A stretch of 64,000 nucleotides of DNA from an uncultured Bacteroidota bacterium. Lineage in GTDB: Bacteria > Bacteroidota > Rhodothermia > Balneolales > HLUCCA01. Shown in pieces: positions 20,278 through 33,366 of this stretch. The notes below the pieces were generated by a model, which searched no databases, had not been told where the DNA came from, and saw only the letters and a list, made by a program, of their open reading frames with translations. The position numbers were made by a program, and so were the translations under genes. Position 1 is the first letter of the stretch; every line of letters starts with the position of its first letter. The stretch covers positions 6,025 to 70,024 of the forward strand of contig CAMTWZ010000021.1 of NCBI GenBank assembly GCA_947085565.1, read 5' to 3'.

Positions 20278-20347
20278 CTAGAATTTACTCTCGATTACGA
20301 AGTCGTACTTCTCGAAATGTCGTGCCATTCGGTATGCTGACATCTAG

Positions 20348-20367
20348 CCCCCGGTTTAAACCGGGGG
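20348..20367. repeat. REP-like 20-nt palindrome
   Basis: CCCCCGGTTTAAACCGGGGG. Confidence 0.6.
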
Positions 20368-20376
20368 TTGTAGATT

Positions 20377-20799
20377 TTAGGCGAATGGATTGATGATTCG
20401 CAAGCCATCTATGCTTTGCCCGTGTTGCAAATCTTCTGAATACAGTACGGAGCAACCTGATTCAAGTGCGGACGCGATGATCAATGAATCATAAAACGAA
20501 TATGACCATCTCTCTTGGATATCGAGAGCTTTGATGGTCAATCCCAGGCTCGAGTTTAATTGCCACATCGGAGACATGATGGACTCGACATACATTCTGG
20601 CGTCACTGTGTTTCAATGGTTTGCTGAACTTTTTGGTAGCGACATTCACAAACTCCTGAACCACTTGATAACTGATTCGAGCCGTAGTTGCTTCAGATGT
20701 CTTGTGAATCAGATCCAGAGCCACATCGCGTTTTCTCGAATCTCGGAGATCGAAGGAGTACACGAAGATATTCGTGTCTAAGAAAACTTTAGCGCTCAT
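20377..20799 (-). CDS. vapC: PIN-domain toxin (VapC family)
   Basis: VFLDTNIFVYSFD N-terminal PIN acidic motif. 140 aa. Overlaps the upstream small gene by 11 nt. Confidence 0.8.
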   Translation of the reverse strand: MSAKVFLDTNIFVYSFDLRDSRKRDVALDLIHKTSEATTARISYQVVQEFVNVATKKFSKPLKHSDARMYVESIMSPMWQLNSSLGLTIKALDIQERWSYSFYDSLIIASALESGCSVLYSEDLQHGQSIDGLRIINPFA

Positions 20800-21007
20800 T
20801 CATGTCATCCCGGGTGAAAGAACGTCCAGCTTCTGCATAAGAAAGTCGCTCCATGACCTCATTTAGACTCATTTTAGTCGATCCCGATGACGCGTAGCTC
20901 GACAGCCACTCTCTGAACTTTTCATTCAGAGTAGTCTTCTCCGTCATCGCTTTCAGTCGAGCTTGTTGGATGAGGGATTCTTCGGCACTAAAGGTGATGT
21001 TTTTCAT
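20789..21007 (-). CDS. putative antitoxin (VapB-like) of the PIN toxin
   Basis: 72 aa from the internal ATG (MKNITFSAEESLIQQARLKA...). Position and overlap with vapC support the call. The longer track ORF starts at a TTG inside repeat DNA. Confidence 0.55.
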   Translation of the reverse strand: MKNITFSAEESLIQQARLKAMTEKTTLNEKFREWLSSYASSGSTKMSLNEVMERLSYAEAGRSFTRDDMNER

Positions 21008-21133
21008 ATCGCACAATTTTCGTGTACACGAGTTTCGTGTAATGTACGTGGTAGAAGTGAAAAAGAAAAGGATGTGAGCACGGGTCCTACGCTTCCCCTT
21101 CGCGTTGCTCAGGGTAAAGCTCAGGACCAATGA

Positions 21134-21153: not shown

Positions 21154-21181
21154 TTAGTGGAAGATCCCCGAATAGGGCGCT

Positions 21182-21212
21182 GTCATCCTGAGCCGCGAAG
21201 CGGCGAAGGACC
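21182..21212 (+). repeat. copy (forward orientation) of the TCATCCTGAG-hairpin-GAAGGACC element
   Basis: GTCATCCTGAGCCGCGAAGCGGCGAAGGACC, inverted relative to 20184-20213. Confidence 0.6.
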
Positions 21213-21265
21213 TAATCCCGCGATACCTCTCGAACCTACAGGCCTTTCGAAGTGCAGCCCTCTAA

Positions 21266-21285
21266 CCCCCGGTTTTAACCGGGGG
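21266..21285. repeat. REP-like 20-nt palindrome
   Basis: CCCCCGGTT-TT-AACCGGGGG. Confidence 0.6.
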
Positions 21286-21325
21286 TTGTTACGAATGAGT
21301 ATTTCCATTTGCTTTGAAATCTCTT

Positions 21326-21487
21326 TATAATTGCATCTAATGAACCCGATCAACATCATCAGCCCAACCCGCACCGAGAGGACCAAACGGACTCCGTCAG
21401 CGAAGGCTATGTCTTGAAGTAGGGAACAACCACATTCAATAAAGGCAGGATCTTCGCGGATTCTGCCTTTTTTTTTGCCCAACGCCC
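21326..21487 (+). promoter_or_regulatory. putative arginine leader-peptide attenuator, copy 1 (upstream of argG)
   Basis: 25-codon ORF 21340-21417 (MNPINIISPTRTERTKRTPSAKAMS) has Arg codons CGC, AGG and CGG within 7 codons. Segment 21400-21415 can pair with 21442-21457, which competes with terminator stem 21444-21452/21459-21467. A T9 run ends 11 nt before the argG ATG. TATAATTG at 21326-21333 resembles a Bacteroidetes -7 box. Confidence 0.65.
21441..21476 (+). terminator. intrinsic terminator of attenuator copy 1
   Basis: GGCAGGATC, loop TTCGCG, GATTCTGCC (9 bp including one GU), followed by TTTTTTTTT. Confidence 0.75.
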
Positions 21488-22690
21488 ATGTCATCACCCA
21501 TCATACTTGCCTATAGCGGAGGTCTGGACACCAGCTTCTGCATTCCTTACTTGAACGAAACCCACGGCGCGCCGGTGCATGCGGTCACGGTCGATTGCTC
21601 GGGCCTGTCGCCCGACGCGCTATCCGCCCTCGAAACCAAAGCCTTGGCCTACGGCGCGGCATCGTTCACTGCCATCGACGGCACACAAAGCATGTACACC
21701 GACATCCTGAGCTGGCTGATCCGCGGCAATGTGCTACGCGACCGCACCTATCCGCTGTGCGTAGGTGCCGAGCGGTTCATCCAGGCCGAAAAGGTCGTCG
21801 GGCATGCCAAATCCATCGGCGCCACGCGCATCGCCCATGGCTCAACCGGGGCCGGCAACGATCAGGTGCGATTCGATGTGGCGCTGCGCACCTTGCTTCC
21901 GGGCGTGGAGATCCTCACACCAATCCGTGATTTGCGTCTCACCCGGGCCTTCACCACGCAGTACTTGCGCGACCGCGGCTTCGAAGTCTCCGACAAAACC
22001 ACCCAGTATTCGATCAACGACGGACTCTGGGGCACCACCATCGGCGGAAAAGAAACCACGACCTCCGAGCAGGCGCTTCCGTTCGACGCCTTCCCGCATC
22101 TCAAAAACCCCGCGACATTCACAGAGCCCGCGGAAACGCTGACGATCGGGTTCGAACTCGGACTTCCGGTAAGCCTGAACGGCCAAGCGCTGGATTCCAT
22201 CCCGCTTTTGCAAGCCGTCCTAGACATCGGCCGGAAGCATGGCATCGGTCGGGGTATGCACTTGGGCGACACCATATTGGGCATCAAAGGTCGGATCGGG
22301 TTCGAAGCGCCGGTCGCCACCATCCTGTATGCCGCACACAAGGAATTGGAAAAACTCACGCTCACCAAATGGCAGCGCCACATCAAAGACCAATTGGGCG
22401 ACACCTACGGCATGTTGCTGCACGAAGGGCAGTATTTCGATCCCGTGATGCGCGACATCGAAGCGTTCTTGGAGCACTCGCAGCGCACGGTGACTGGCAC
22501 CGTGGATCTACACATCGGCAACGGGCAGGTGTTTCCGCTCGGGGCCGAATCCCCATTCAGTCTGATGAATTCGTCCATCGCCAAATACGGCGAAGAATCG
22601 AGCGGATGGACGGGTGAAGAGGCCCGCGCGTTCTCCAAGCTTCACGGAATGGCCACACAAATCGCTTATCAGGTTCAGAACCCGAAATAA
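21488..22690 (+). CDS. argG: argininosuccinate synthase
   Basis: AYSGGLDTS and HGSTGAGNDQVRF signatures. 400 aa. Confidence 0.95.
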   Translation: MSSPIILAYSGGLDTSFCIPYLNETHGAPVHAVTVDCSGLSPDALSALETKALAYGAASFTAIDGTQSMYTDILSWLIRGNVLRDRTYPLCVGAERFIQAEKVVGHAKSIGATRIAHGSTGAGNDQVRFDVALRTLLPGVEILTPIRDLRLTRAFTTQYLRDRGFEVSDKTTQYSINDGLWGTTIGGKETTTSEQALPFDAFPHLKNPATFTEPAETLTIGFELGLPVSLNGQALDSIPLLQAVLDIGRKHGIGRGMHLGDTILGIKGRIGFEAPVATILYAAHKELEKLTLTKWQRHIKDQLGDTYGMLLHEGQYFDPVMRDIEAFLEHSQRTVTGTVDLHIGNGQVFPLGAESPFSLMNSSIAKYGEESSGWTGEEARAFSKLHGMATQIAYQVQNPK

Positions 22691-22708
22691 ATGTGAACTA
22701 CATGTGAG

Positions 22709-23311
22709 CTACAGAGAATGGAAGATCGAATCATCCAGAAGAGTCTCAAGCTCGATAAGCCCAACCTTTCGAACAACGATATGTTCAGATTCAATCTGTG
22801 GGGTTTGTCTAAGTCTACCATAAGGCAGTTTTTGTGTAGAGTAGATTCGCTTCGCTATAATCACTTGAGGTGAGGCAGCATTGTGTGGATGATCCCAATG
22901 CTGCCAAAAATAACGCTGCAGTGCAATATTCGACAGAGAATTGCCAACAGAGATTTCATCGAATTCACTAAAAGAGGATAGGTATTTTAAACCATCAGAA
23001 ACCGAGTTTTCGATCGTTATACCAACAGAGTTGAATCGGTAACCCCGCTTATTCGATTCAATACGGTATCTATCTAAAGCTGAGGATAGTATGTCAGGTA
23101 ATTTAGACTCTTTGGATGAACTGCAAGTGGAGCTTCCAATAAATATTAGAACAATTTCATTCGCATCCGCAAAGGGATCTGCACCCTGAGTCTCATTAGA
23201 AGAACTTTGTGAAGTTGGCGACGAGAAGTTAATTGTCAAAAAGTGTGCGATGAAAAAAGCTAAAATCACAATTGATGCGTTTCGAGCATATACATACAAA
23301 TCAATTTTCAT
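22709..23311 (-). CDS. membrane-anchored hypothetical protein, possible thioredoxin-like fold with CxxS (AT-rich island)
   Basis: Start MKIDLYVYARNASIVILAFFIAHFL (N-terminal TM). VLIFIGSSTCSSS and the later SPQVIIAKR follow the order of the Trx-fold beta1-CxxC and cis-Pro elements. This is pattern-level only. Confidence 0.5.
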   Translation of the reverse strand: MKIDLYVYARNASIVILAFFIAHFLTINFSSPTSQSSSNETQGADPFADANEIVLIFIGSSTCSSSKESKLPDILSSALDRYRIESNKRGYRFNSVGITIENSVSDGLKYLSSFSEFDEISVGNSLSNIALQRYFWQHWDHPHNAASPQVIIAKRIYSTQKLPYGRLRQTPQIESEHIVVRKVGLIELETLLDDSIFHSL

Positions 23312-24521
23312 GAACCATAATAAGTGTAGGTTGAGGGTATGGAGATACAAACGTGATGGCTATATTTGACTTTAGAACCCCAATACGAGCAAAATCATGG
23401 GTATAGGTTAATTCTCCGGAATTGGTGTCTACTAGGATAGTATTAATGGAGTTATTATTGAGTGTCAAATTCTTTTTCTTGGCAAAAAAGTCTTGAGGTA
23501 ATCGATTCACAAATTGCAAAACTGAAAAAGTTCCTATGTCGGTTCTAGGGGTTGGGAGTTTGTGATGTAAGATGTCGGAATTTGTGTAAGAATAGAATGA
23601 AGGTCCTTCCGATGTCATCTCTTCCGTGAATTCAGTGCTTATGTAGCCATCTATTTTTGATATCCATTTTTGATTTCCATCTGTATCGTAACCAAAAATA
23701 TATGGGAAGTGACTAGGATAGCCTACAACAGTTTTTGTTTCATAATTGCAACTTATAAGCGTTTCTGACATTCTGCTGTTCAAAAAACCCCAGCCAGATT
23801 CAGAATTGTATGAGTAGCCAAAGGAAAAAGACGGATTTTGATTCGTCAGATCGAGTCGAAGAATCGGTGCTGTCGATCTGGCTTCACCTTGCTTCTTAAT
23901 TCCTTTGGAAACTGACTCAACATCATCTCGGATAATTCTGTGTCCACTAATGTACAAGTATGAATCGATTATGCAAATGTCAGTTGTTCGAATGATATCC
24001 AATAAGATTGTTTTGTGGTATTCAAATTTTAGATTGTTCCTAGTAAATACTTCGACTTTGTTGTAATCCAAGACATACAGCGACTCGTACTCTTTATCGA
24101 AAACAAAGGAATGGATGCGGAAAAATTCTCCAGGCCCGCGTCCAGCACGCCCAATCTCATATAAGTATGACCCGTATTTATCATAGACATTGATAGTGTT
24201 CCCATGATTTTGAACGATGTAAATATGACCTGTTAGATCGATGTCCATTTTGGGCGGAATACCATCAAAACTTAACTTTCTGGAGAAAATCGAGTCTTTT
24301 CCTATAACTGTAATCGGAGTGGATTCTAGTAAATAGGAAAATGTGTTGCGATAAACCACAGATGGATTTCGGATATCCAATCTGTGGTTTATCTCGTTAA
24401 CTTTTGGAAACTGCGAGTGATCCGGATGTGAAAACTTTCCAGATTTTCCACAACCCATAGCGATCATCCACAATAGAAGACTGGCAACTGTAGATGGACA
24501 AATATTCCTCATCAGTTTCAC
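23301..24521 (-). CDS. lipoprotein, 6-bladed beta-propeller family (GPGEF motif; BF3164/NHL-like)
   Basis: Lipobox MIAMGC. GRAGRGPGEFFRIHSF is the hallmark motif of the Bacteroides 6-bladed beta-propeller family as I recall it. Repeated beta-rich segments. Confidence 0.65.
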   Translation of the reverse strand: MKLMRNICPSTVASLLLWMIAMGCGKSGKFSHPDHSQFPKVNEINHRLDIRNPSVVYRNTFSYLLESTPITVIGKDSIFSRKLSFDGIPPKMDIDLTGHIYIVQNHGNTINVYDKYGSYLYEIGRAGRGPGEFFRIHSFVFDKEYESLYVLDYNKVEVFTRNNLKFEYHKTILLDIIRTTDICIIDSYLYISGHRIIRDDVESVSKGIKKQGEARSTAPILRLDLTNQNPSFSFGYSYNSESGWGFLNSRMSETLISCNYETKTVVGYPSHFPYIFGYDTDGNQKWISKIDGYISTEFTEEMTSEGPSFYSYTNSDILHHKLPTPRTDIGTFSVLQFVNRLPQDFFAKKKNLTLNNNSINTILVDTNSGELTYTHDFARIGVLKSNIAITFVSPYPQPTLIMVHEN

Positions 24522-24528
24522 TTATGAT

Positions 24529-24738
24529 TTAGGAACAGGGTACTCCACCACACTGTGCCCCATTATTGCCACCGCACTCACCGTATCCCATTGTGTAATC
24601 ACAAAATCCGTTTTTAACGTCAGGGTTGGAGAAGTTGCAGAGGCCACATGGTCCTAATGCACTGGCTCGATTATTCGAACCGGTAAAAATTCCAATTGCT
24701 ATCGCAATGGTAACAACTACAGCTAATTTTCTATTCAT
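24529..24738 (-). CDS. 69-aa Cys/Gly-rich secreted peptide precursor
   Basis: MNRK + LAVVVTIAIAIGIFTG + SNNRASA, then a 42-aa core with 6 Cys and 10 Gly (LGPCGLCNFSNPDVKNGFCDYTMGYGECGGNNGAQCGGVPCS). Ends 7 nt upstream of the propeller gene start. Confidence 0.6.
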   Translation of the reverse strand: MNRKLAVVVTIAIAIGIFTGSNNRASALGPCGLCNFSNPDVKNGFCDYTMGYGECGGNNGAQCGGVPCS

Positions 24739-24947
24739 ATGACTAGGTTTAAAAGGTTATTGAAACTACTCTGACTTTATAAAAAAAAAAGTTCTATTGC
24801 AACACGTCGACTCAACTATTTTTGACAAAAGAGGACCTGTGAAAAAAACATTTACAACTGAACATATGTGTAGGCTGAGGAACTCTTGACCAATAGTTAA
24901 GTTCAGCTGGAAAAAAATCCGCATTTCCATTTCCCTTCAAAAAGATT

Positions 24948-25106
24948 TATTATTGGGGATGTTCAACAAACTAGCACAAAGCCTCACCCGCACCGAGAGG
25001 ACCAAACGGACTCCGTCAGCGAAGGCTATGCCTTGAAGTAGGGAACAACCACATTCAATAAAGGCAGGATCTTCGCGGATTCTGCCTTTTTTTTTGATAA
25101 CCACCC
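24948..25106 (+). promoter_or_regulatory. putative arginine leader-peptide attenuator, copy 2 (upstream of the arg operon)
   Basis: 25-codon ORF 24959-25036 (MFNKLAQSLTRTERTKRTPSAKAMP). Positions 24986-25095 are 109/110 identical to 21367-21476. Antiterminator 25019-25034 : 25061-25076 (12 WC + 2 GU + 2 mismatches). Terminator 25063-25071/25078-25086 plus T9. ATG of the next gene 11 nt later. TATTATTG at 24948-24955. Confidence 0.65.
25060..25095 (+). terminator. intrinsic terminator of attenuator copy 2
   Basis: Same hairpin plus T9 as 21441-21476. Confidence 0.75.
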
Positions 25107-26177
25107 ATGACCATCGCACTCGAAACCATCACCGCCGACATCATCGCATCCAGTTCCGGATCGGTCAAGCTCACGAACCCCATCACATTGGCGAAAAATG
25201 TGGTGGCGCAGGAGGGATATTTGGTCGCAGTGCGCACGCTCGACGACAAAGACACCTACAACAAGCTCGAAATCACAACAGGGGAGTTCGTGACCTACGG
25301 TCCGGGTAAGATCGTGATCGGCGCTTTGGGCGAACGCCAGGCGTTGCGAGGCTACAGTGGCGTGATTCCACGTTCCGTGAAAGCGGGCGACATCCTGCAT
25401 ATTCTGAACATGGGTGGCATCATCGGGACGTGCCAATCGCCGCATCCGGATTTTGGTCCGGCGATGCGGGTGGAAGTCCTCGGTGCCGTGATGGTGAACG
25501 ACGATGGACACATGAAGCACGCCTGCATCCAAGATCACGCCATCGACTGGGTGTATTCTCTCGAAGCGACCGCGCCGTTGATCGGCGTGACCGGAACCGC
25601 GATGAATGTGGGAAAAACCATGGCCGCTTCGCAGATCGTGAAACATCTGGCGGACAAAGGATATAAAGTCGGTGCTGTGAAACTCACCGGTGCCTCGCTC
25701 ATGCGCGATGTGCGTTCGATGATGGATCAAGGCGCCGCGTTCTGCACCCATTTCTCGGAAGCCGGACTCGTCTCCACCACCGGAAAAAACATCCTTCCCA
25801 TGGCCAAGGGACTCATCCATCACCTGAATTCACTGAAGCCAGATGTGATTGTGATGGAATTCGGGGATGGGATCATTGGTCCGTATGGGGTGGATAGCTT
25901 GCTGATGGACAAGGAAATCCAGCGCAACATCACTTGTCATGTCGTGGCTGCGCAAGATTTCATGGGATGTTGGGCGGCGGATAACTTCTTCCGGAAGCGG
26001 TACAACCGGGACATTCACATTTTCACGGGTCCGGTGACCGATAACCTGGTCGGCATCCAGTTCATTCAGAACACGATGGGCATCCGCGCGGTGAATGCCG
26101 TCGCCGATTCGGCCACACTTGGCGCTTGGGTCGAAGAAATCGCGTTCAAGAAGCCACAGACGGAGGATTTCTTGTGA
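25107..26177 (+). CDS. uncharacterised P-loop (BioD/DUF1611-like GTxxxVGKT) protein, first gene of the arg operon
   Basis: 356 aa. GVTGTAMNVGKTMAASQIVKHLADKGYKVGAVKLTG and VIVMEFGDGIIGPYG resemble the deviant Walker A and the EGQG-type segment of DUF1611/dethiobiotin-synthetase-like folds. Translationally coupled to argC (GTGA at 26174-26177). Confidence 0.75.
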   Translation: MTIALETITADIIASSSGSVKLTNPITLAKNVVAQEGYLVAVRTLDDKDTYNKLEITTGEFVTYGPGKIVIGALGERQALRGYSGVIPRSVKAGDILHILNMGGIIGTCQSPHPDFGPAMRVEVLGAVMVNDDGHMKHACIQDHAIDWVYSLEATAPLIGVTGTAMNVGKTMAASQIVKHLADKGYKVGAVKLTGASLMRDVRSMMDQGAAFCTHFSEAGLVSTTGKNILPMAKGLIHHLNSLKPDVIVMEFGDGIIGPYGVDSLLMDKEIQRNITCHVVAAQDFMGCWAADNFFRKRYNRDIHIFTGPVTDNLVGIQFIQNTMGIRAVNAVADSATLGAWVEEIAFKKPQTEDFL

Positions 26178-27121
26178 AGCGTCATACCGTCGCCTTAGCC
26201 GGAGCCAGCGGATACACGGGGATGGAAGTGCTGCGGATCGCGATTTCGCATCCGGGTATCTCCATCACCGAATTGTATGGCGCGAGCTCGGCAGGGAAGA
26301 CCATCCAAGAGCTCGTCCCGGCGTTCGAAGGCTATTATGATCTTGTGATTGGCGATATCGCCACAATCTTTGATACCAACGCCGATGCGGTGATCCTCGC
26401 GCTGCCTCACGGCGAATCCGCATCCATCGTCGATGCGCTTCTCGCCAAGGGGTACAAAGGCAAGATCGTGGATATCGGCTCGGACCATCGCGCCGATTGC
26501 CGCGCCATCTACGGCTTGGTGGAAGCGTTCCGTGATAGTCTGGTCGGCGCCGATTTCGTGGCCAACCCGGGTTGTTTCGCCACGGCGATTCAGCTCGGCG
26601 TGAAACCGCTCAGCGATTCCGGACTCGTCGATCAGGTCTTTGTGACCGGAGTGACGGGTTCATCTGGTTCCGGAGCTACTCCTTCTACTACGACACATTC
26701 TTCGTCAAGAATAGGTAACCTCAAGGCGTACAAAGTGTTCGAGCATCAGCATTTGGATGAGGTCCGTCACACGGTCGGCATTCCGGTGAATTTCGTGCCG
26801 GTGAGCGGACCGTTCGTCCGCGGCATCTGGATCACCATCCAAGCCACATTAAACCAAGACGCGGATGTGGATGCGATCTTTGCAAACGCCTATGCCTCTT
26901 CGCCGATGGTGCGCCTTCGCAAAGGACTTCCCGAGCTCAAACCCGTCATCGGCACCAATTTCGCCGATATCGGATGGGTGGTAAAAGGAAATCATATTGT
27001 TGTTGGTGTCGCCATCGACAATCTCGGAAAAGGCGCGGCCGGACAAGCGCTTCAAAACCTCAATCTCATGCTGGGTCTGCCCGAAACCACGGGACTGCTC
27101 ACACCTCCGCAACTGTTATGA
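26174..27121 (+). CDS. argC: N-acyl-gamma-glutamyl-phosphate reductase
   Basis: ALAGASGYTGMEVLRI NAD fold. Active-site NPGCFATA. GTG start overlapping the upstream stop. Confidence 0.9.
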   Translation: MKRHTVALAGASGYTGMEVLRIAISHPGISITELYGASSAGKTIQELVPAFEGYYDLVIGDIATIFDTNADAVILALPHGESASIVDALLAKGYKGKIVDIGSDHRADCRAIYGLVEAFRDSLVGADFVANPGCFATAIQLGVKPLSDSGLVDQVFVTGVTGSSGSGATPSTTTHSSSRIGNLKAYKVFEHQHLDEVRHTVGIPVNFVPVSGPFVRGIWITIQATLNQDADVDAIFANAYASSPMVRLRKGLPELKPVIGTNFADIGWVVKGNHIVVGVAIDNLGKGAAGQALQNLNLMLGLPETTGLLTPPQLL

Positions 27122-28272
27122 CCGATTGGAAAGCCATTGAAGACCAGTACGAAGCGCTCACCTATGCGCGCTGGCCTGTCGTGTTCGAGCGGGGAGAGGG
27201 CATTCATCTGTTCGATGAATCGGGCAAGAAATATGTCGATCTGTACGGCGGACATTGCGTCTCCATCTTAGGCCATTCGCCGACTCGTGTGACAGAAGCC
27301 GTTTATACCCAAGCCAAGCAACTGCCGTTTTACTCGAACGTCGTCTATCATCCATCCCGCGCGAAAGCCGCGAAAACGCTGGTCGATATGGCGGATGGGT
27401 TCGATCGCGTGTTTTTCTGCAATTCCGGAACCGAAGCGAATGAAAACGCCATCAAACTGGCCTGGCAGTTCACCGGGAAGACGCACATGCTCAGCACCAC
27501 GGGCGGCTGGCACGGACGGACCCTCGCCTCCATATCCGTCACCCACACCGAAAAAATGCGCAAACCGGTACTATTCGCGCTTCCGGACGTGACGTTCGTC
27601 CCCTTCGGGGATGCGGATGCGCTGCAAACCGTGCTTGAATCGCGCGATGATGTGGCCGGACTCATCCTCGAACCCATCCAAAGCATTTCCGGATGTGTGA
27701 TGGCGGATGCGAGCTATTACCGGCGCATCCGCGAGCTGTGCGACGAGCACGGTGTGGTCCTCATTTTCGATGAAATCCAGACCGGAGTGGGCCGCACCGG
27801 CACCTTCAGCATTTCCGAAGGATTCGGAATGCGTCCCGATCTCATCACGCTGGCCAAGAGCTTGGGCGCCGGTTTCCCCCTCGGCGCCGTCCTCATGCCC
27901 GAACGCATCGCCACCACCCTGCGCATCGGGGACCTGGGTTCCACCTTCGCGGGCGGCATGATGGCCATGGCGGCGTGCGAAGCCACCTTGAACGAAATCT
28001 CCGAGCACAACCTCATGTCGAACGCCCCGCTTCTGTTCGACGCCCTTCGCGTGGCCCTGGCCGACGCGCCGATCGAACTGCGCGGAAAAGGGGCGCTAAT
28101 CGGACTCAAACTGCCGAAACCTGCAAAAGACGTCGTTACTGAGCTGTTCAACCGCGGCTGGATCACCGGCACGTCCGACGATCCCCACGTGATGCGCCTC
28201 ATGCCGCCGCTCATCACTCCAACTACCGTCATCACCGAATTCGCACACGAGCTACTCGATGTCCTCCACTAA
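27118..28272 (+). CDS. argD: acyl-ornithine aminotransferase (class III PLP)
   Basis: FDEIQTGVGRTGTF and LAKSLGAGFPLGAV (PLP-Lys region). ATGA overlap at 27118-27121. Confidence 0.9.
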   Translation: MTDWKAIEDQYEALTYARWPVVFERGEGIHLFDESGKKYVDLYGGHCVSILGHSPTRVTEAVYTQAKQLPFYSNVVYHPSRAKAAKTLVDMADGFDRVFFCNSGTEANENAIKLAWQFTGKTHMLSTTGGWHGRTLASISVTHTEKMRKPVLFALPDVTFVPFGDADALQTVLESRDDVAGLILEPIQSISGCVMADASYYRRIRELCDEHGVVLIFDEIQTGVGRTGTFSISEGFGMRPDLITLAKSLGAGFPLGAVLMPERIATTLRIGDLGSTFAGGMMAMAACEATLNEISEHNLMSNAPLLFDALRVALADAPIELRGKGALIGLKLPKPAKDVVTELFNRGWITGTSDDPHVMRLMPPLITPTTVITEFAHELLDVLH

Positions 28273-29278
28273 TCTCACTCATTTCACAAGCCTCTCGGAT
28301 TGGTCGAACCCCGATCTGAACTCCATCATCGACACGGCCATTCGCCTGAAATCTGGCGCGCTGACCTCCCAAGCCGGTAAAGGGAAGGTGTTAGGACTTG
28401 TTTTTTTCAATCCCTCGCTACGAACGAAGATCTCCTTTGAAGTCGCCGCCGCGCACTTGGGTGCGACCACGGCCTTGGTGCAGCCCGGACAAGGCTCCTG
28501 GACTCTCGAAACCGAGCCAGGCGCCATCATGGACGGCAACAAGACCGAGCATGTGAAAGAAGCGATCCAGGTCTTGTCGCAATACTGCGATGCGATCGGA
28601 GTGCGTGCATTTTCCGGACTTAAAGACCGCGATGCGGACTACGGCGATTTGCTGTTGAACCGCATCCGCGAGTATGCCACGGTTCCTGTCATCAATCTCG
28701 AAAGCGCGATGGAGCATCCATGTCAGGGCTTGGCGGATTGGATGACCATTAATGAGCTTTTCCCGGGAGGGACTAAGGGCAAGAAACTGGTGCTTACCTG
28801 GGCGCCTCATCCGAACCCGTTGCCGGTCGCTGTACCCAATAGTGTCTTGGACGTGGCGTCGCGCAGTGGGATAGACGTGACATTGGCGTGTCCGCCGGAA
28901 ATGTTACTCAATGCCGAGACGCTTGAGCGGGTGAAAACGATGTGTGCGTCGAACGGGTCTCGGTTCGTGGTGGATCACGATCAGAGTCGGGCGCTGCATG
29001 CCGCGGATGTGGTGTATGCGAAGAGTTGGGCGTCGGGGTTGGTGTACACCGATCCCGAGAAAGAGAAATCGCTGCGTTGGGAAACCTACCGAGATTGGAC
29101 ACTCACCGGCGAGAAGATGGCGCTCACCAACGAGGCCAAGTTCATGCACTGCCTGCCGGTGCGCCGCAATGTGGTGGTCGCCGATGAGGTGATCGACTCG
29201 CCGAATGCGGTCCACATCCAAGAAGCGGGCAACCGTCTTCACGTGCAAAAAGCCATATTGCTGAAGCTATGGGAATGA
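28259..29278 (+). CDS. argF': N-acetyl/N-succinyl-ornithine carbamoyltransferase (ArgF' type)
   Basis: FFNPSLRTK, WTLETEPGAIMDGNKTEH, LTWAPHPNPLPVAVPNS and FMHCLPVRRN closely follow my memory of Bacteroides fragilis ArgF'. Lacks the canonical OTC DxxxSMG. Confidence 0.85.
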   Translation: MSSTNLTHFTSLSDWSNPDLNSIIDTAIRLKSGALTSQAGKGKVLGLVFFNPSLRTKISFEVAAAHLGATTALVQPGQGSWTLETEPGAIMDGNKTEHVKEAIQVLSQYCDAIGVRAFSGLKDRDADYGDLLLNRIREYATVPVINLESAMEHPCQGLADWMTINELFPGGTKGKKLVLTWAPHPNPLPVAVPNSVLDVASRSGIDVTLACPPEMLLNAETLERVKTMCASNGSRFVVDHDQSRALHAADVVYAKSWASGLVYTDPEKEKSLRWETYRDWTLTGEKMALTNEAKFMHCLPVRRNVVVADEVIDSPNAVHIQEAGNRLHVQKAILLKLWE

Positions 29279-30030
29279 CCGTCCTCAAACTGAGCGGAAG
29301 CCTGAGCGATGATCCGACCTCGCTGGATTTGGTGTGTCAATTCATCTCAGAACACGGATCGCAAGTCGTTGTGGTGCATGGCGGTGGAAAACAGATCAAT
29401 GAGATGTGCGCACGGCTCGGAATTCCGGTGTTGCAAGTCGCCGGACGCCGCATCACCACTCCTGAAACCATGGATGTCCTTCTTAAAACCGTGGGAGGGA
29501 GCCTCAACCGCGGACTCGTTTCTGATTTCCGGTCCCGCGGAATACACTCCGTCGGACTCACCGGCGCGGATGGCGGACTCACCACATCCCGGAAGCGTCC
29601 GCCTCTGGTCATCGATGGCGTGGAAACCGATTTCCAGCTGGTTGGTGAGTTGGAGTCGGTCGATCCATCCATCCTTCAGACACTTATCGCTGGAGGATTT
29701 GTGCCCGTAATCGGCTGCCTCACGTGGAGCGAGGAGCACGGGTATCTGAACATCAACGCGGACACCTTCGCCATCGCCATCGCGAACGCGCTACGCGCCG
29801 ATCAGCTCGTGTTTCTGATGGAGCCCGAAGCGGTCTTGGATGCGGAGAAGACGCCAATCTCCCGCATGACGAAGAATGACTTTATCGCCGGTGTGTCGCA
29901 AGGATGGATCACAGACGGAATGCGTCCCAAGCTCGAAACCGGCTTCAAAGCGTTGGAATCGGGGATTCAAAGCGTGACACTGACGAATCCGGCCGGGTTG
30001 GCCGCGCAAAAAGGAACCACACTCGCATGA
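29269..30030 (+). CDS. argB: acyl-glutamate kinase
   Basis: VVVHGGGKQIN and the amino-acid-kinase fold. The second ATG (29275) forms an ATGA overlap with the argF' stop and may be the true start. Confidence 0.9.
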   Translation: MGMTVLKLSGSLSDDPTSLDLVCQFISEHGSQVVVVHGGGKQINEMCARLGIPVLQVAGRRITTPETMDVLLKTVGGSLNRGLVSDFRSRGIHSVGLTGADGGLTTSRKRPPLVIDGVETDFQLVGELESVDPSILQTLIAGGFVPVIGCLTWSEEHGYLNINADTFAIAIANALRADQLVFLMEPEAVLDAEKTPISRMTKNDFIAGVSQGWITDGMRPKLETGFKALESGIQSVTLTNPAGLAAQKGTTLA

Positions 30031-31103
30031 ACTGGCTCACCGATCATCCAAAAGAATTATTGAAAGCGGTCGTGCGGTTTCCGAGCCTCAGCACGAAGGA
30101 AAAACCATTGGTGGATTGGCTTGAAGCGGAAATCCAGGCCCTGAATCTGGTCCAGGTAGAGCGATATGGCGATAATCTCGTGTTTTCACTGGGGTCCGGC
30201 GCGCCATGGCTCATGCTCAATTCGCACACCGATGTCGTTCCGCCATCCCCGAATCATATCGGCGATCCGTTCGAGCCGGTGGAGCGTGATGGGAAACTGT
30301 ACGGACGCGGCACGGTCGATGCGAAAGGCTGCGGTGTTTCGATGCTTCGCGCATTATTGGAATTGGCGGAATCGGGCTATCAGCCAAAGGGCAAAGTGAG
30401 CGTGTCGCTCACGATCTGCGAAGAAACCGCGGGTGAGCACAACGGGATGCATCATTTGCGTCATGTCGTCGGACTCCAACCCGACGCCGCGCTCATCGGC
30501 GAACCGACGATGTTGGCGCCCTGTCTGGCGCAGAAAGGAATGCTTTTAGTGAAACTGGTGACCACGGGGGAATCGGGGCATGCGGCGCGGGTGACCGGTC
30601 CGAACGCCATCTCACGCATGGCGTCGGTGCTCGCGAGTCTGCAGGATGTGAGTTTCAAGGAGGAAAACCCATTCATCGGGTCCGTGAAGATCACTCCGAC
30701 CATGATTTCCGGTGGGACCGCGAAAAACGCGAATCCGGAAGTGTGCGAGGTGATCGTCGACATCCGCACCATTCCGGAAGTGCCGAATGAGCTCATCATC
30801 GACACGCTGAAAACCATGCTCTCCTGCGACGTCCACGTCCTTAGCGACCGTTTCGTGGCCACGCAGACGGATCCCAACTCCGTGATCGCGCAAAGTTGCC
30901 TGCGTCGTAGCGGAAAGCCGTTTTTCGGGTCACCGACGGCTTCCGACTGGGTATTCTTAGCCGACATTCCGTGCATCAAGATCGGTCCGGGCGACAGCAC
31001 GAAATCACACACCGCCGACGAACACATCGACCTTACGCAGCTCGAAGCGGCGGTACCCTTGTATAAATCCATCATCCACGACTATTTCGAGACACATCCA
31101 TGA
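30027..31103 (+). CDS. argE: M20-family deacylase (ArgE/DapE-like; acyl-citrulline or acyl-ornithine deacylase)
   Basis: NSHTDVVPP and GRGTVDAKG metal-binding motifs. ATGA overlap at 30027-30030. Confidence 0.7.
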   Translation: MNWLTDHPKELLKAVVRFPSLSTKEKPLVDWLEAEIQALNLVQVERYGDNLVFSLGSGAPWLMLNSHTDVVPPSPNHIGDPFEPVERDGKLYGRGTVDAKGCGVSMLRALLELAESGYQPKGKVSVSLTICEETAGEHNGMHHLRHVVGLQPDAALIGEPTMLAPCLAQKGMLLVKLVTTGESGHAARVTGPNAISRMASVLASLQDVSFKEENPFIGSVKITPTMISGGTAKNANPEVCEVIVDIRTIPEVPNELIIDTLKTMLSCDVHVLSDRFVATQTDPNSVIAQSCLRRSGKPFFGSPTASDWVFLADIPCIKIGPGDSTKSHTADEHIDLTQLEAAVPLYKSIIHDYFETHP

Positions 31104-32431
31104 GCAGCCTTTGGAAAAAAGAGGGACAATCTGACTCGCACGACTGGTTTCATGCGTTCACCACAGCCGAAGACCGTGCCCTGGATCAGCGTTTGGTGCC
31201 TTATGACCTGTGGACGAACGCCGCCCACGCCGCGGTCCTTTTTCGTAGCGGAATCCTCACCGACGCTGAGTTGGCGAAGCTCCGTGCTGCGCTTTCTTCC
31301 TTGCTCGCCTCCGCACTCACCCTCGCACCGGAAGACGAAGATGTTCATAGCGCCGTGGAAAACCGCTTAACCGCCGAATTGGGCGATCTGGGCAAGAAAA
31401 TCCATACCGCACGGAGTCGGAACGACCAAGTGCTGACCGATTTGAGGCTGCATGCCCGTGAACAGATCTTGCATACCTGCGGGAAGCTGTTATCCATCGT
31501 GAAGACTCTTTTCGCGATCGCGGAAGCCAATAAGGGCGTGGGTTTCGCCGGAACGACGCACACGCAACCGGCCATGCCGAGCTCGGTCGACGCGTGGGCC
31601 TTGGGCTACGCCGATCTGCTTCTTCAGACGCTGAATGCCGCGCCGAGCGTGTATGCGGCGATCAACCGCTCGCCGCTTGGAACCGCGGCAGGGTATGGGG
31701 CGCCGCATTTCGAGCTGGATCGTGCTTTCGCGGCCGAGCTCTTGGCGTTCGACTCGGTGATCACGCCCGTGGCGGGAGCGCAGCTCAGCCGGGGTTCGGA
31801 TGATCTGCGCCTGGCCGATTGGCTCTGCTATGGATTGGGAACGGCGCATCGGGTGGCGGCGGATCTGATCTGGATGGCGCATCCGGCGCAAGGCTTCATC
31901 CGCCTCTCAGACGACCAATCGTCGGGAAGCAGCATCATGCCTCAGAAACGCAATCCGGACGCGTTGGAGCTCATCCGTGGCAGCTGGCATGAGGCCACGG
32001 GCTATGCGCACACCATCCGCTCGCTCAGCGCCGGACTCATTTCCGGCTACCACCGCGATCTGCAACTGATCAAGAAAGCAAGTTTCGCGCTGTTCGATCT
32101 CAATTCCTCTGTCCTCGACGCGTTTGAGCGCTGCCTGAGCGGCATCCGGTTCGATTCCGATTCTTGTTCGAAAAGCATCACGCCAGAGGTGATGTCCACA
32201 CATCATGCGAACAATATGGTGAAGGACGGGATGCCGTTCCGCGACGCATATCGCCAAGCTGCGCAGGATCTGAAATCCGGTGCGGTTTCTGATTCCGGAA
32301 ATGCACTGCAAGCGTACCTGAATCCGGGAGAGCCGGGGAATCCGGTCTATCCGGAACTCTCGGAACATCTTTCCTGGCTGAAAACACAAATCGCGCGGAT
32401 ACAAGACGCAAAAGACGCCAGTTTCGGTTAA
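31100..32431 (+). CDS. argH: argininosuccinate lyase
   Basis: GSSIMPQKRNPD signature. 443 aa. ATGA overlap at 31100-31103. Confidence 0.95.
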   Translation: MSSLWKKEGQSDSHDWFHAFTTAEDRALDQRLVPYDLWTNAAHAAVLFRSGILTDAELAKLRAALSSLLASALTLAPEDEDVHSAVENRLTAELGDLGKKIHTARSRNDQVLTDLRLHAREQILHTCGKLLSIVKTLFAIAEANKGVGFAGTTHTQPAMPSSVDAWALGYADLLLQTLNAAPSVYAAINRSPLGTAAGYGAPHFELDRAFAAELLAFDSVITPVAGAQLSRGSDDLRLADWLCYGLGTAHRVAADLIWMAHPAQGFIRLSDDQSSGSSIMPQKRNPDALELIRGSWHEATGYAHTIRSLSAGLISGYHRDLQLIKKASFALFDLNSSVLDAFERCLSGIRFDSDSCSKSITPEVMSTHHANNMVKDGMPFRDAYRQAAQDLKSGAVSDSGNALQAYLNPGEPGNPVYPELSEHLSWLKTQIARIQDAKDASFG

Positions 32432-32442
32432 TTTCAATCATC

Positions 32443-33366
32443 ATGTCCAATTCCATCGAAAGCAAATTCATCGCGGCCTGCATCGGCGCATCACTGGGCG
32501 AAAGCATCGGAATGGCGTGCGAAAGCATGTCTCCGGCTCAGATACAGGAACAGTTCGGACGGATCAAGGGTCCGGCGCCACGACCCGAATCCGAAGAGTT
32601 CTATCCCTTGCCTGCGGGCAGCACCGCCCGGCAGACCGAAGGATTGCTCGCCGTTCTGAAATCGTCGCATCCGCTGCCGGATCTGCCCAATTTCGCATTC
32701 CACATCAAAGACGCGTTCAATCGATTTCCGACGCTATGGCCTAAAAGTGCGGCGTTCCCGTGGCCGCCGTTTCCCGATGAAGGCCACTACACGTTCGCGT
32801 TCGCTCTACCCGCGGCGTATCGGTTGGCGACGTCTCAGATCTCAGTGGAAGAAGCCGCCGATTGGCTGAAGAGTTTCGCGCCGGTCTCCATCGTCTGGCA
32901 GCAGGGTACCTGGGTGTACATGCGCTTGCTGGCGTGGATGTTCGAGCATCAACCGCAGGGGTTTTCAAAGGGACATTTTCTGACCAAGGCGTTGATGTTC
33001 ATCGACGAGGCGGAGGTGTATTTTCCGCACGATTTCAAACTGAAGCGTCGGATGCAGAGCGTGCAACCTCTGTTGGACGGACCCATCGATAAAGTGGCCG
33101 AGGTTTGCGAGAATGTGAATATCGCGGCGGAGAACATCGTGAGCGTGGTCGGCGCGATATTCTATAAGCATCACGATTCGTTCCAAGATGCGATACTGTC
33201 CGGCGCGAACCTCGGTGGCAGCACCGGAGCGGTCACTTTCTACACCGGAAGCCTGCTCGGCGCGCTTCACGGAACGTCGATCTTCCCCGAAGCCTGGCTC
33301 GAAAAACTCCGCGTACGGGATAGTGTGGAGCATGCTTCGAAGAGTTACGTGGGACGAGGACAGTAG
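32443..33366 (+). CDS. ADP-ribosylglycohydrolase-like protein with degenerate metal-binding motifs
   Basis: N-terminal AACIGASLGESIGMACE and C-terminal GGSTGAVTFYTGSLLGALHGTSIFPEAWLEKL follow the ARH/DraG pattern (GDALG...E and GGDTDT...G..G...P..W), but the Asp residues are replaced. Confidence 0.55.
   Translation: MSNSIESKFIAACIGASLGESIGMACESMSPAQIQEQFGRIKGPAPRPESEEFYPLPAGSTARQTEGLLAVLKSSHPLPDLPNFAFHIKDAFNRFPTLWPKSAAFPWPPFPDEGHYTFAFALPAAYRLATSQISVEEAADWLKSFAPVSIVWQQGTWVYMRLLAWMFEHQPQGFSKGHFLTKALMFIDEAEVYFPHDFKLKRRMQSVQPLLDGPIDKVAEVCENVNIAAENIVSVVGAIFYKHHDSFQDAILSGANLGGSTGAVTFYTGSLLGALHGTSIFPEAWLEKLRVRDSVEHASKSYVGRGQ

Follow-up and report, generated by a model that had tools for sequence, protein, structure and literature searches.

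A putative arginine-sensing leader-peptide attenuator standing before both halves of a split arginine operon in Balneolales

1 INTRODUCTION

Why should two separate arginine transcription units on one bacterial contig be preceded by virtually the same 110 nucleotides? In the textbook view, bacterial arginine biosynthesis is controlled by ArgR, the repressor that governs it in Escherichia coli, and the classical attenuators are those of tryptophan, histidine, leucine, threonine, phenylalanine, and isoleucine/valine. We have addressed the question in a 64-kb stretch of DNA from a Balneolales bacterium (the window, by which we mean the whole of the stretch analyzed), where one copy of the element lies before argG and another before a gene of the arginine operon that we call X. 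The reading that we favor, and regard as highly probable, is that positions 24924–25106 comprise a promoter followed by a ribosome-mediated, arginine-sensing transcription attenuator of the trp/his/leu leader kind. A well-supported arginine attenuator, kept across two orders of a group that has received little study, would thereby be added to the known repertoire.

2 TWO COPIES OF ONE LEADER

A first-pass annotation of the window had reported that positions 24986–25095 repeat positions 21367–21476 at 109 of 110 bases, and direct comparison of both stretches bears this out; no other direct-repeat family of at least 40 nt occurs in the 64-kb window, and this one has two copies, designated here copy 1 (before argG) and copy 2 (before X). 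The sole mismatch, T at 21412 in copy 1 versus C at 25031 in copy 2, had been said to alter both an antiterminator base pair and a residue of the encoded peptide, rightly on both counts: position 25031 opens codon 25, which reads CCT (Pro) in copy 2 and TCT (Ser) in copy 1, and it pairs with G25064 as C–G in copy 2 and as U–G in copy 1. The features described outside the identical block are equally accurate. In-frame ATG codons at 21340 and 24959, each 27 nt before the block, open 25 codons followed by TGA in both copies; the upstream box reads TATTATTG at 24948–24955 and TATAATTG at the equivalent site of copy 1; and a spacer of 11 nt ending in CCC leads in each case to the downstream ATG, that of argG (21488) or of X (25107). 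Family scans yield the gene order that had been proposed, namely, argG, then X, argC, argD, argF′, argB, argE, and argH, and the stretch between the copies is AT-rich as claimed, with 35–46% GC against 53–64% in its flanks, over about 2.2 kb between argG and copy 2.

Sequence comparison and minimum-free-energy folding give the following anatomy for copy 2, all of it on the plus strand. A candidate promoter at 24924–24955 (TTTCCA, 18 nt, TATTAT), located by a consensus scan, is the same in sequence as the native argG promoter of the related loci L001, L084, and L092, and would set the start of transcription. The leader open reading frame (ORF) at 24959–25036, of 25 codons plus TGA, encodes MFNKLAQSLTRTERTKRTPSAKAMP and holds three Arg codons, CGC at 24989–24991, AGG at 24998–25000, and CGG at 25007–25009. 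Within this ORF folds a 5′ stem-loop, the “1:2” helix (24980–25031), in which AGCCU (24980–24984) pairs with AGGCU (25023–25027) and CGC (24989–24991) with GCG (25019–25021) around an inner hairpin at 24994–25015, and which encloses the three Arg codons together with part of region 2. The latter, the 5′ strand of the antiterminator (GAAGGCUAUGCCUU, 25021–25034), contains the C/T difference and ends on the first base of the stop codon at 25034–25036. Region 3 (AAGGCAGGAUCUUC, 25061–25074), consisting of the terminator 5′ arm and loop, has either region 2 or the terminator 3′ arm as its partner. The intrinsic terminator itself (25060–25095) is built of a 13-bp stem (25060–25072/25077–25089), a 4-nt loop, and a T9 run (25087–25095), beyond which the 11-nt spacer (GATAACCACCC, 25096–25106) joins the leader directly to the ATG of X.

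Copy 1 (21302–21476, plus strand) occupies the ancestral position and has the same upstream context as loci L093 and L094. It comprises a promoter at 21302–21331 (TTTCCA-18-TATAAT), a leader ORF at 21340–21417 (MNPINIISPTRTERTKRTPSAKAMS), region 2 at 21402–21415, and a terminator at 21441–21470 with a 13-bp stem and a T9 run that ends at 21476. Elsewhere in the 64-kb window no other pairing of a leader-like ORF with a terminator was found. Downstream of copy 1, argG (21488–22690, plus strand) is now monocistronic; downstream of copy 2, the controlled operon X-argC-argD-argF′-argB-argE-argH spans 25107–32431 of the plus strand, X occupying 25107–26177 and argF′ encoding N-acetylornithine carbamoyltransferase.

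3 PREDICTED MECHANISM OF ATTENUATION

We infer from this arrangement that transcription starts at the leader AUG or a few bases away from it and that the 25-codon ORF is then read by a ribosome. With ample charged tRNA-Arg, this ribosome would reach the UGA at 25034–25036 and mask region 2, upon which the terminator would form and transcription would stop before X. When arginine is scarce, the ribosome would instead stall at CGC, AGG, or CGG (24989–25009). The CGG codon ends at 25009 and region 2 begins at 25021, and a ribosome stalled with CGG in its A site would have its leading edge at about 25020, leaving region 2 free to pair with 25061–25074 before the terminator 3′ arm exists and thus permitting read-through into X-argCDF′BEH. 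Copy 1 would act in the same manner upon argG. The three codons concerned are used to very different extents in the arg genes, where CGC makes up 48%, CGG 21%, and AGG 1.9% of Arg codons.

The distance from the end of the −10 box to the leader AUG is 8 nt in copy 1 and 5 nt in copy 2, and because the latter is so short, the model needs a leaderless or near-leaderless mRNA. Judged by this spacing, the message is probably of that kind; were transcription to start 3′ of the A of the AUG, the copy 2 leader ORF could not be translated. Bacteroidetes mostly make no use of Shine–Dalgarno sequences.

When free, the segment 25021–25077 adopts the antiterminator as its minimum-free-energy fold, at −17.1 kcal/mol in copy 2 and −14.4 kcal/mol in copy 1, a gap that arises because the former has a C–G pair where the latter has U–G. 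The terminator alone is computed at −17.7 kcal/mol. Once the full terminator has been made, the terminator state is favored (−26.7 vs. −17.6 kcal/mol), and since the complete terminator is thermodynamically preferred, read-through must be kinetic in origin.

4 A LEADER FAMILY IN BALNEOLALES AND RHODOTHERMALES

The first-pass annotation had argued that both arg units share one device made of a leader ORF, a terminator, and an antiterminator. This proposal draws strong comparative support from two orders. Relatives were gathered as 80 loci from species-representative genomes by alignment of X homologues, together with further contigs retrieved by exact-protein look-ups; the X homologues assign the window's own organism to Balneolales. 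In about 70 of these loci, spread over Balneolales and Rhodothermales and amounting to nearly every locus, an Arg-codon-rich ORF of 21–38 codons lies upstream of argG (for example, MNNKVIYNLRTENRRRRIRRRRMAALCEDCV and MAKFRFTNSIITVRRLRRRRTGKLHICEGQAM), and a strong hairpin terminator follows, its T-run lying about 50–65 nt 3′ of the leader stop codon. The densest 10-codon window of these ORFs holds a mean of 5.2 Arg codons in Balneolales and 5.1 in Rhodothermales, against 1.45 and 1.73, respectively, in the dinucleotide shuffles that served as the control; the reverse complement is no valid control, because a run of CGN codons yields CGN again when the opposite strand is read with the frame shifted.

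The manner in which these codons vary is equally informative. All six Arg codons are used among the family leaders, and in ten leaders of 31 codons, the third codon position varies in 8/8 of the conserved Arg columns, the first in 1/8, and the second in 0/8. This third-position pattern is, as far as comparison can tell, the signature of selection on codon meaning in the leader frame. The peptides themselves have only the Arg run in common, along with a C-terminus that is dictated by the RNA of region 2.

Both alternative RNA structures are conserved as well. In an alignment of 38 Balneolales leaders, the terminator is 97.6% paired and the antiterminator 83% paired (slid controls, 37–51%), each with seven compensatory pairs, and the antiterminator score was reached by none of 500 shuffles. 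By an alignment-free measure, 76% of loci have the best partner of the terminator 5′ arm no more than 15 nt from the leader stop codon, and in most loci region 2 ends 0–12 nt before the end of that codon. Region 2 follows the final Arg codon of the run at a median distance of 12.5 nt (interquartile range, 8–16.5 nt), which is about the reach of one stalled ribosome as measured to its leading edge. For the 1:2 helix, by contrast with these elements, conservation is not supported: across 70 loci, the best duplex was no better than that of shuffles (mean z −0.7; 26% below −2).

5 A REDUCED LEADER AND ALTERNATIVE READINGS

Relative to the rest of the family, the leader of the window's genus is reduced. 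It carries only three Arg in 25 codons, spaced as R-T-E-R-T-K-R and never adjacent, while other lineages have 5–11 Arg codons; the enrichment that characterizes the family is thus seen only weakly in the window copies, and arginine specificity is expected to be weaker than elsewhere. All eight distinct leaders of the genus run to 25 codons from an ATG placed 27 nt ahead of the core, and start codon, frame, and length alike have been kept through sequence that is only 52% identical. The X-leader of locus L086 has lost Arg17, its third Arg codon now being CTG. A further Balneolales leader, at L005 2378–2529 (MQINTLHTNLVKGSAIARTNPGKVMSGI), retains the terminator and antiterminator with a single Arg codon, its Arg run gone, and may be an attenuator that no longer senses arginine. 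The window peptide also contains four Thr codons, and sensing of threonine was considered and rejected on the ground that Thr10 and Thr12 are not conserved in relatives.

The alternative that we take most seriously, while judging it unlikely, is that the module is still coupled to translation but in this genus has lost specific sensing of arginine, so that it reports general translation speed or provides a fixed, low level of read-through. The three Arg codons, set against the 5–11 of relatives, accord with such a loss, as do the two leaders lacking the run or Arg17 in which the structures persist, and the conservation of codons that lie inside a conserved hairpin could stem from RNA structure. 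Yet R-x-E-R-T-K-R is kept in seven of the eight genus leaders, the element is found only before arg genes, and one of its three codons is the rare AGG. A pair of Trp codons, moreover, is sufficient for trpL. To sense arginine, the Salmonella orf34-speF leader (PMC6386406) likewise needs no more than two Arg codons, and by this precedent three may suffice in the window. The three-codon form (CGC, AGG, CGG) offers a natural test of the minimum number of regulatory codons. Considerably less probable is an RNA sensor that acts independently of translation, whether a riboswitch, a T-box-like element, or a protein-binding leader, with the ORF incidental. One might be led to it by the 93–97% conservation of the core RNA within the genus and by the stable 5′ stem-loop, but outside the genus the 5′ part is conserved in neither sequence nor structure, and what is kept there is the ORF frame and the Arg codons, whose columns vary nearly only at the third position. 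The leader stop codon, furthermore, falls on region 2 in most loci, and no family of Rfam, the T-box included, matches the window or ten diverse loci.

Marginally less credible still is the notion that the nascent peptide arrests the ribosome under the influence of free arginine, in the manner of the fungal arginine attenuator peptide, rather than through the charging of tRNA-Arg. Poly-Arg tracts can slow ribosomes, and RxERTKRTPSAKAM is conserved in the genus; that conservation, however, is at the nucleotide level, and the family shares no arrest motif beyond the Arg run and the RNA-dictated C-terminus. That the repeat is a mobile or generic element, such as a MITE or REP sequence, or else an artefact of metagenome assembly, is scarcely tenable. 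A near-identical 110-nt repeat that contains a palindrome and flanks an AT-rich island could well give this impression, and the first-pass annotation had itself counted copies before unrelated genes as grounds for refutation; the search for them came out negative. A profile of the Balneolales leaders run over 870 kb of related DNA matched once per locus, on the plus strand and always before argG, and twice in the window, both times before arg genes; a metagenome scan with a 32-nt core pattern returned only one contig, again with the match before argG, and a viral scan returned none. Both of the junctions that set the second copy in place also recur in independent assemblies, as detailed in Section 7.

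6 RELATION TO KNOWN ATTENUATORS

No family in Rfam accounts for the element. At the gathering score, Rfam 15 matched only tRNA in the whole window; between 20800 and 25400, at E values up to 10, its matches were at chance level; and in ten diverse loci it matched nothing, the His, Trp, Leu, Thr, and Phe leaders, Bacteroid-trp, and the T-box all being without a match. A literature search, which took in few of the subscription journals, found no bacterial Arg leader-peptide attenuator of arg genes. The comparisons support an arginine member of the classical leader-peptide kind, apparently undescribed before, of which an earlier description may exist elsewhere. Its clear covariation would permit an Rfam-type family to be built for annotation.

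In its design, the element closely resembles trpL, hisL, leuL, thrL, pheL, and ilvL, which are likewise short ORFs with codons for the end-product amino acid. As in these enterobacterial attenuators, an intrinsic terminator stands before the first structural gene, the antiterminator shares the terminator 5′ arm, and the stop codon is placed such that a terminating ribosome would mask the antiterminator. It differs from them in that arginine would be the amino acid sensed, in the absence of any sequence or Rfam relationship, in having no demonstrable conservation of a 1:2 pause helix, in an mRNA that is probably leaderless or nearly so, and in its hosts, the Balneolales and Rhodothermales.

Arginine-related leaders from other systems provide partial parallels. 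The fungal arginine attenuator peptide, encoded by the arg-2/CPA1 upstream ORF, similarly lowers the expression of arginine biosynthesis when arginine is plentiful. It is a eukaryotic device in which a conserved nascent peptide stalls the ribosome at the stop codon and blocks scanning, and it has neither a terminator nor a run of Arg codons. The Salmonella orf34-speF leader (PMC6386406) has a short upstream ORF with a small number of Arg codons (AGG CGG), at which pausing reports the supply of arginine and switches the mRNA between alternative structures, much as proposed here, but the target is polyamine synthesis (speF) rather than arginine biosynthesis, the sequence is unrelated, and the outcome is reached by Rho-dependent termination, occlusion of the ribosome-binding site, and RNase G decay instead of an intrinsic terminator. 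Leader-peptide attenuators of amino-acid operons are also on record from the same broad group, the Bacteroidetes (Rfam Bacteroid-trp; candidates in Flavobacterium psychrophilum, PMC9723704), where we found no description concerning arginine or argG, and no Rfam model of which matches here.

7 A DERIVED, SPLIT OPERON

The first-pass annotation had suggested that related genomes be aligned to see whether argG was once contiguous with the operon, and the relatives answer clearly. Among the other loci that hold both genes, argG stands directly before X in 75/75, with a median gap of 18 nt and a largest gap of 154 nt, and each has only one leader, which precedes argG; among close relatives, the stop codon of argG and the start of X overlap as ATGA (TCATGACC). 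Given this uniformity, the split, two-leader order of the window is derived. Homology to the relatives ends after the AAC codon at 22679–22681 and resumes at the ATG of X (25107), and these break points define an inserted segment of about 2.4 kb, at approximately 22682–25106, the right-hand junction of which is the copy 2 spacer.

The insert brings a new argG tail (CCGAAATAA), an AT-rich island, and a promoter–leader unit joined precisely to the ATG of X. The last codons of argG have been altered by it, the C-terminus encoded at 22679–22690 being ...QVQNPK* in the window and ...QVQNS* in relatives. The island (22682–24914; 35–46% GC), which has no counterpart in relatives, carries three ORFs on the minus strand: one of 213 aa with no family (22709–23350), one of 406 aa for a DUF5128 six-bladed beta-propeller (23301–24521), and one for a Cys-rich peptide of 69 aa with a signal-like N-terminus (24529–24738). 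No integrase, transposase, or flanking repeats were seen in or at 22682–24914. The plus strand from the argG stop to the copy 2 terminator (22691–25059) likewise showed no terminator-like site, and argG read-through transcripts could cross the island in antisense and either stop at the second attenuator or be subject to its decision.

A chimeric assembly is ruled out as the source of this arrangement, since both novel junctions, along with the exact ArgG and X proteins, occur in independent Logan assemblies from two other runs. The Logan contigs break inside the repeat, as is expected for duplicated sequence. The X junction, from spacer to ATG, is the same in L081 and L082 and shows one substitution in L085, which represents a different strain-level lineage.

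Taken together, the ancestral state would have been one leader before a contiguous argG-X-argC... operon, into which about 2.4 kb, made up of foreign AT-rich DNA and a promoter–leader module, was inserted precisely where argG ends and the ATG of X begins. Such an insertion separates seven genes from the first leader, and the second leader would restore to them a promoter and, in our model, arginine control. The window would thus capture regulatory evolution under way, in which foreign DNA has cut an operon and the distal part has gained a promoter and an attenuator of its own.

8 ORIGIN OF THE SECOND LEADER

A second genome has arrived at the same solution with a different cargo. On a 342-kb JGI contig (Ga0498926_0000025; L086 870–5800, L092), a different island of 5 kb occupies the same argG/X site, the order being first leader, argG, island, promoter, second leader, and X. 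There ArgG ends in ...QVQRTSN*, and the island genes lie on the plus strand and encode secreted proteins: a Peptidase_S74 protein and two proteins with a Por secretion tail, one a Peptidase_S8 protein and the other an RCC1-repeat protein. As regards its promoter and first nine codons, the second leader in both split genomes is of another type than the first, and in each genome that type matches the argG leader of another lineage. Copy 2 is, by this comparison, not a plain copy of copy 1, and a simple recent duplication within the genome is unlikely, the flanks of the two copies being different old alleles.

The near-identity of the two copies had been ascribed at first pass to recent duplication or gene conversion, and there is little to bear this out. 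The 110-nt core is 93–97% identical among the argG leaders of the genus, while neighboring genes differ more between its species (argG and X about 90% identical, X–argD 83–89%, about 83–93% overall). Because the core is so conserved throughout the genus, its 109/110 identity in the window, slightly above the between-species level, is mostly attributable to purifying selection. Conversion is hinted at by only about three informative sites. At these variable positions the window's copies share a base by which at least one of them differs from its closest allele, L093 being the closest for copy 1 and L092 and L001 for copy 2; homogenization of the pair is weakly indicated. In the JGI genome, the two leader copies are clearly not homogenized.

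The split genomes do not appear as one clade in a neighbor-joining tree of X–argD, in which branches are deep and recombination is likely. Recombination between lineages may lie behind the second leaders, or the two insertions may be independent events constrained to the same functional junction. More speculatively, and with rather low confidence, we would extend these observations to a wider proposal: that Arg-codon attenuation is the ancestral main control of arginine synthesis in Balneolota and Rhodothermota, replacing ArgR or acting atop it, and that the module is portable. Islands would have entered the argG/X junction in at least two lineages, each with a leader of a different type, apparently taken from the argG leader of another lineage and fused base-exactly to the ATG of X, and the junction would be a hot spot at which integration is tolerated and the severed genes are naturally “re-armed.”

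9 GENE X AND NEIGHBORING ELEMENTS

The gene X encodes a conserved protein of 356 aa that always stands between argG and argC in Balneolales and Rhodothermales. It has no match in Pfam and no sequence match in the PDB, and one source labels a homologue “DUF1611 domain-containing.” In an AlphaFold model (pLDDT 88.8), a beta-rich domain at the N-terminus accompanies a P-loop NTPase domain of the SIMIBI type, and a fold search returned generic SIMIBI P-loop NTPases only (SRP54/FtsY, HypB, NifH, and BioD-like). Operon position, translational coupling, and the attenuator all tie X to arginine synthesis. The operon lacks argA and argJ, and one may speculate that X supplies a missing step.

Several minor elements adjoin the two arg units. 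Upstream of copy 1, near-identical palindromic hairpins at 20345–20370 and 21264–21287 (CCCCCGGTTTAAACCGGGGG-like) bracket a PIN toxin module with a putative antitoxin (20377–21130, minus strand), which is absent from L001 and present in L084, L088, and L093; the module has the appearance of a cassette inserted immediately before the argG leader. An element at 21181–21212 (TGTCATCCTGAGC...GAAGGACC) resembles a short dispersed repeat; it recurs, in slightly different forms, a little way ahead of the argG promoters of L084 and L092. At the other end of the operon, a gene of the ADP-ribosylglycohydrolase family (32443–33366) begins 11 nt after argH on the same strand and may belong to the same transcription unit.
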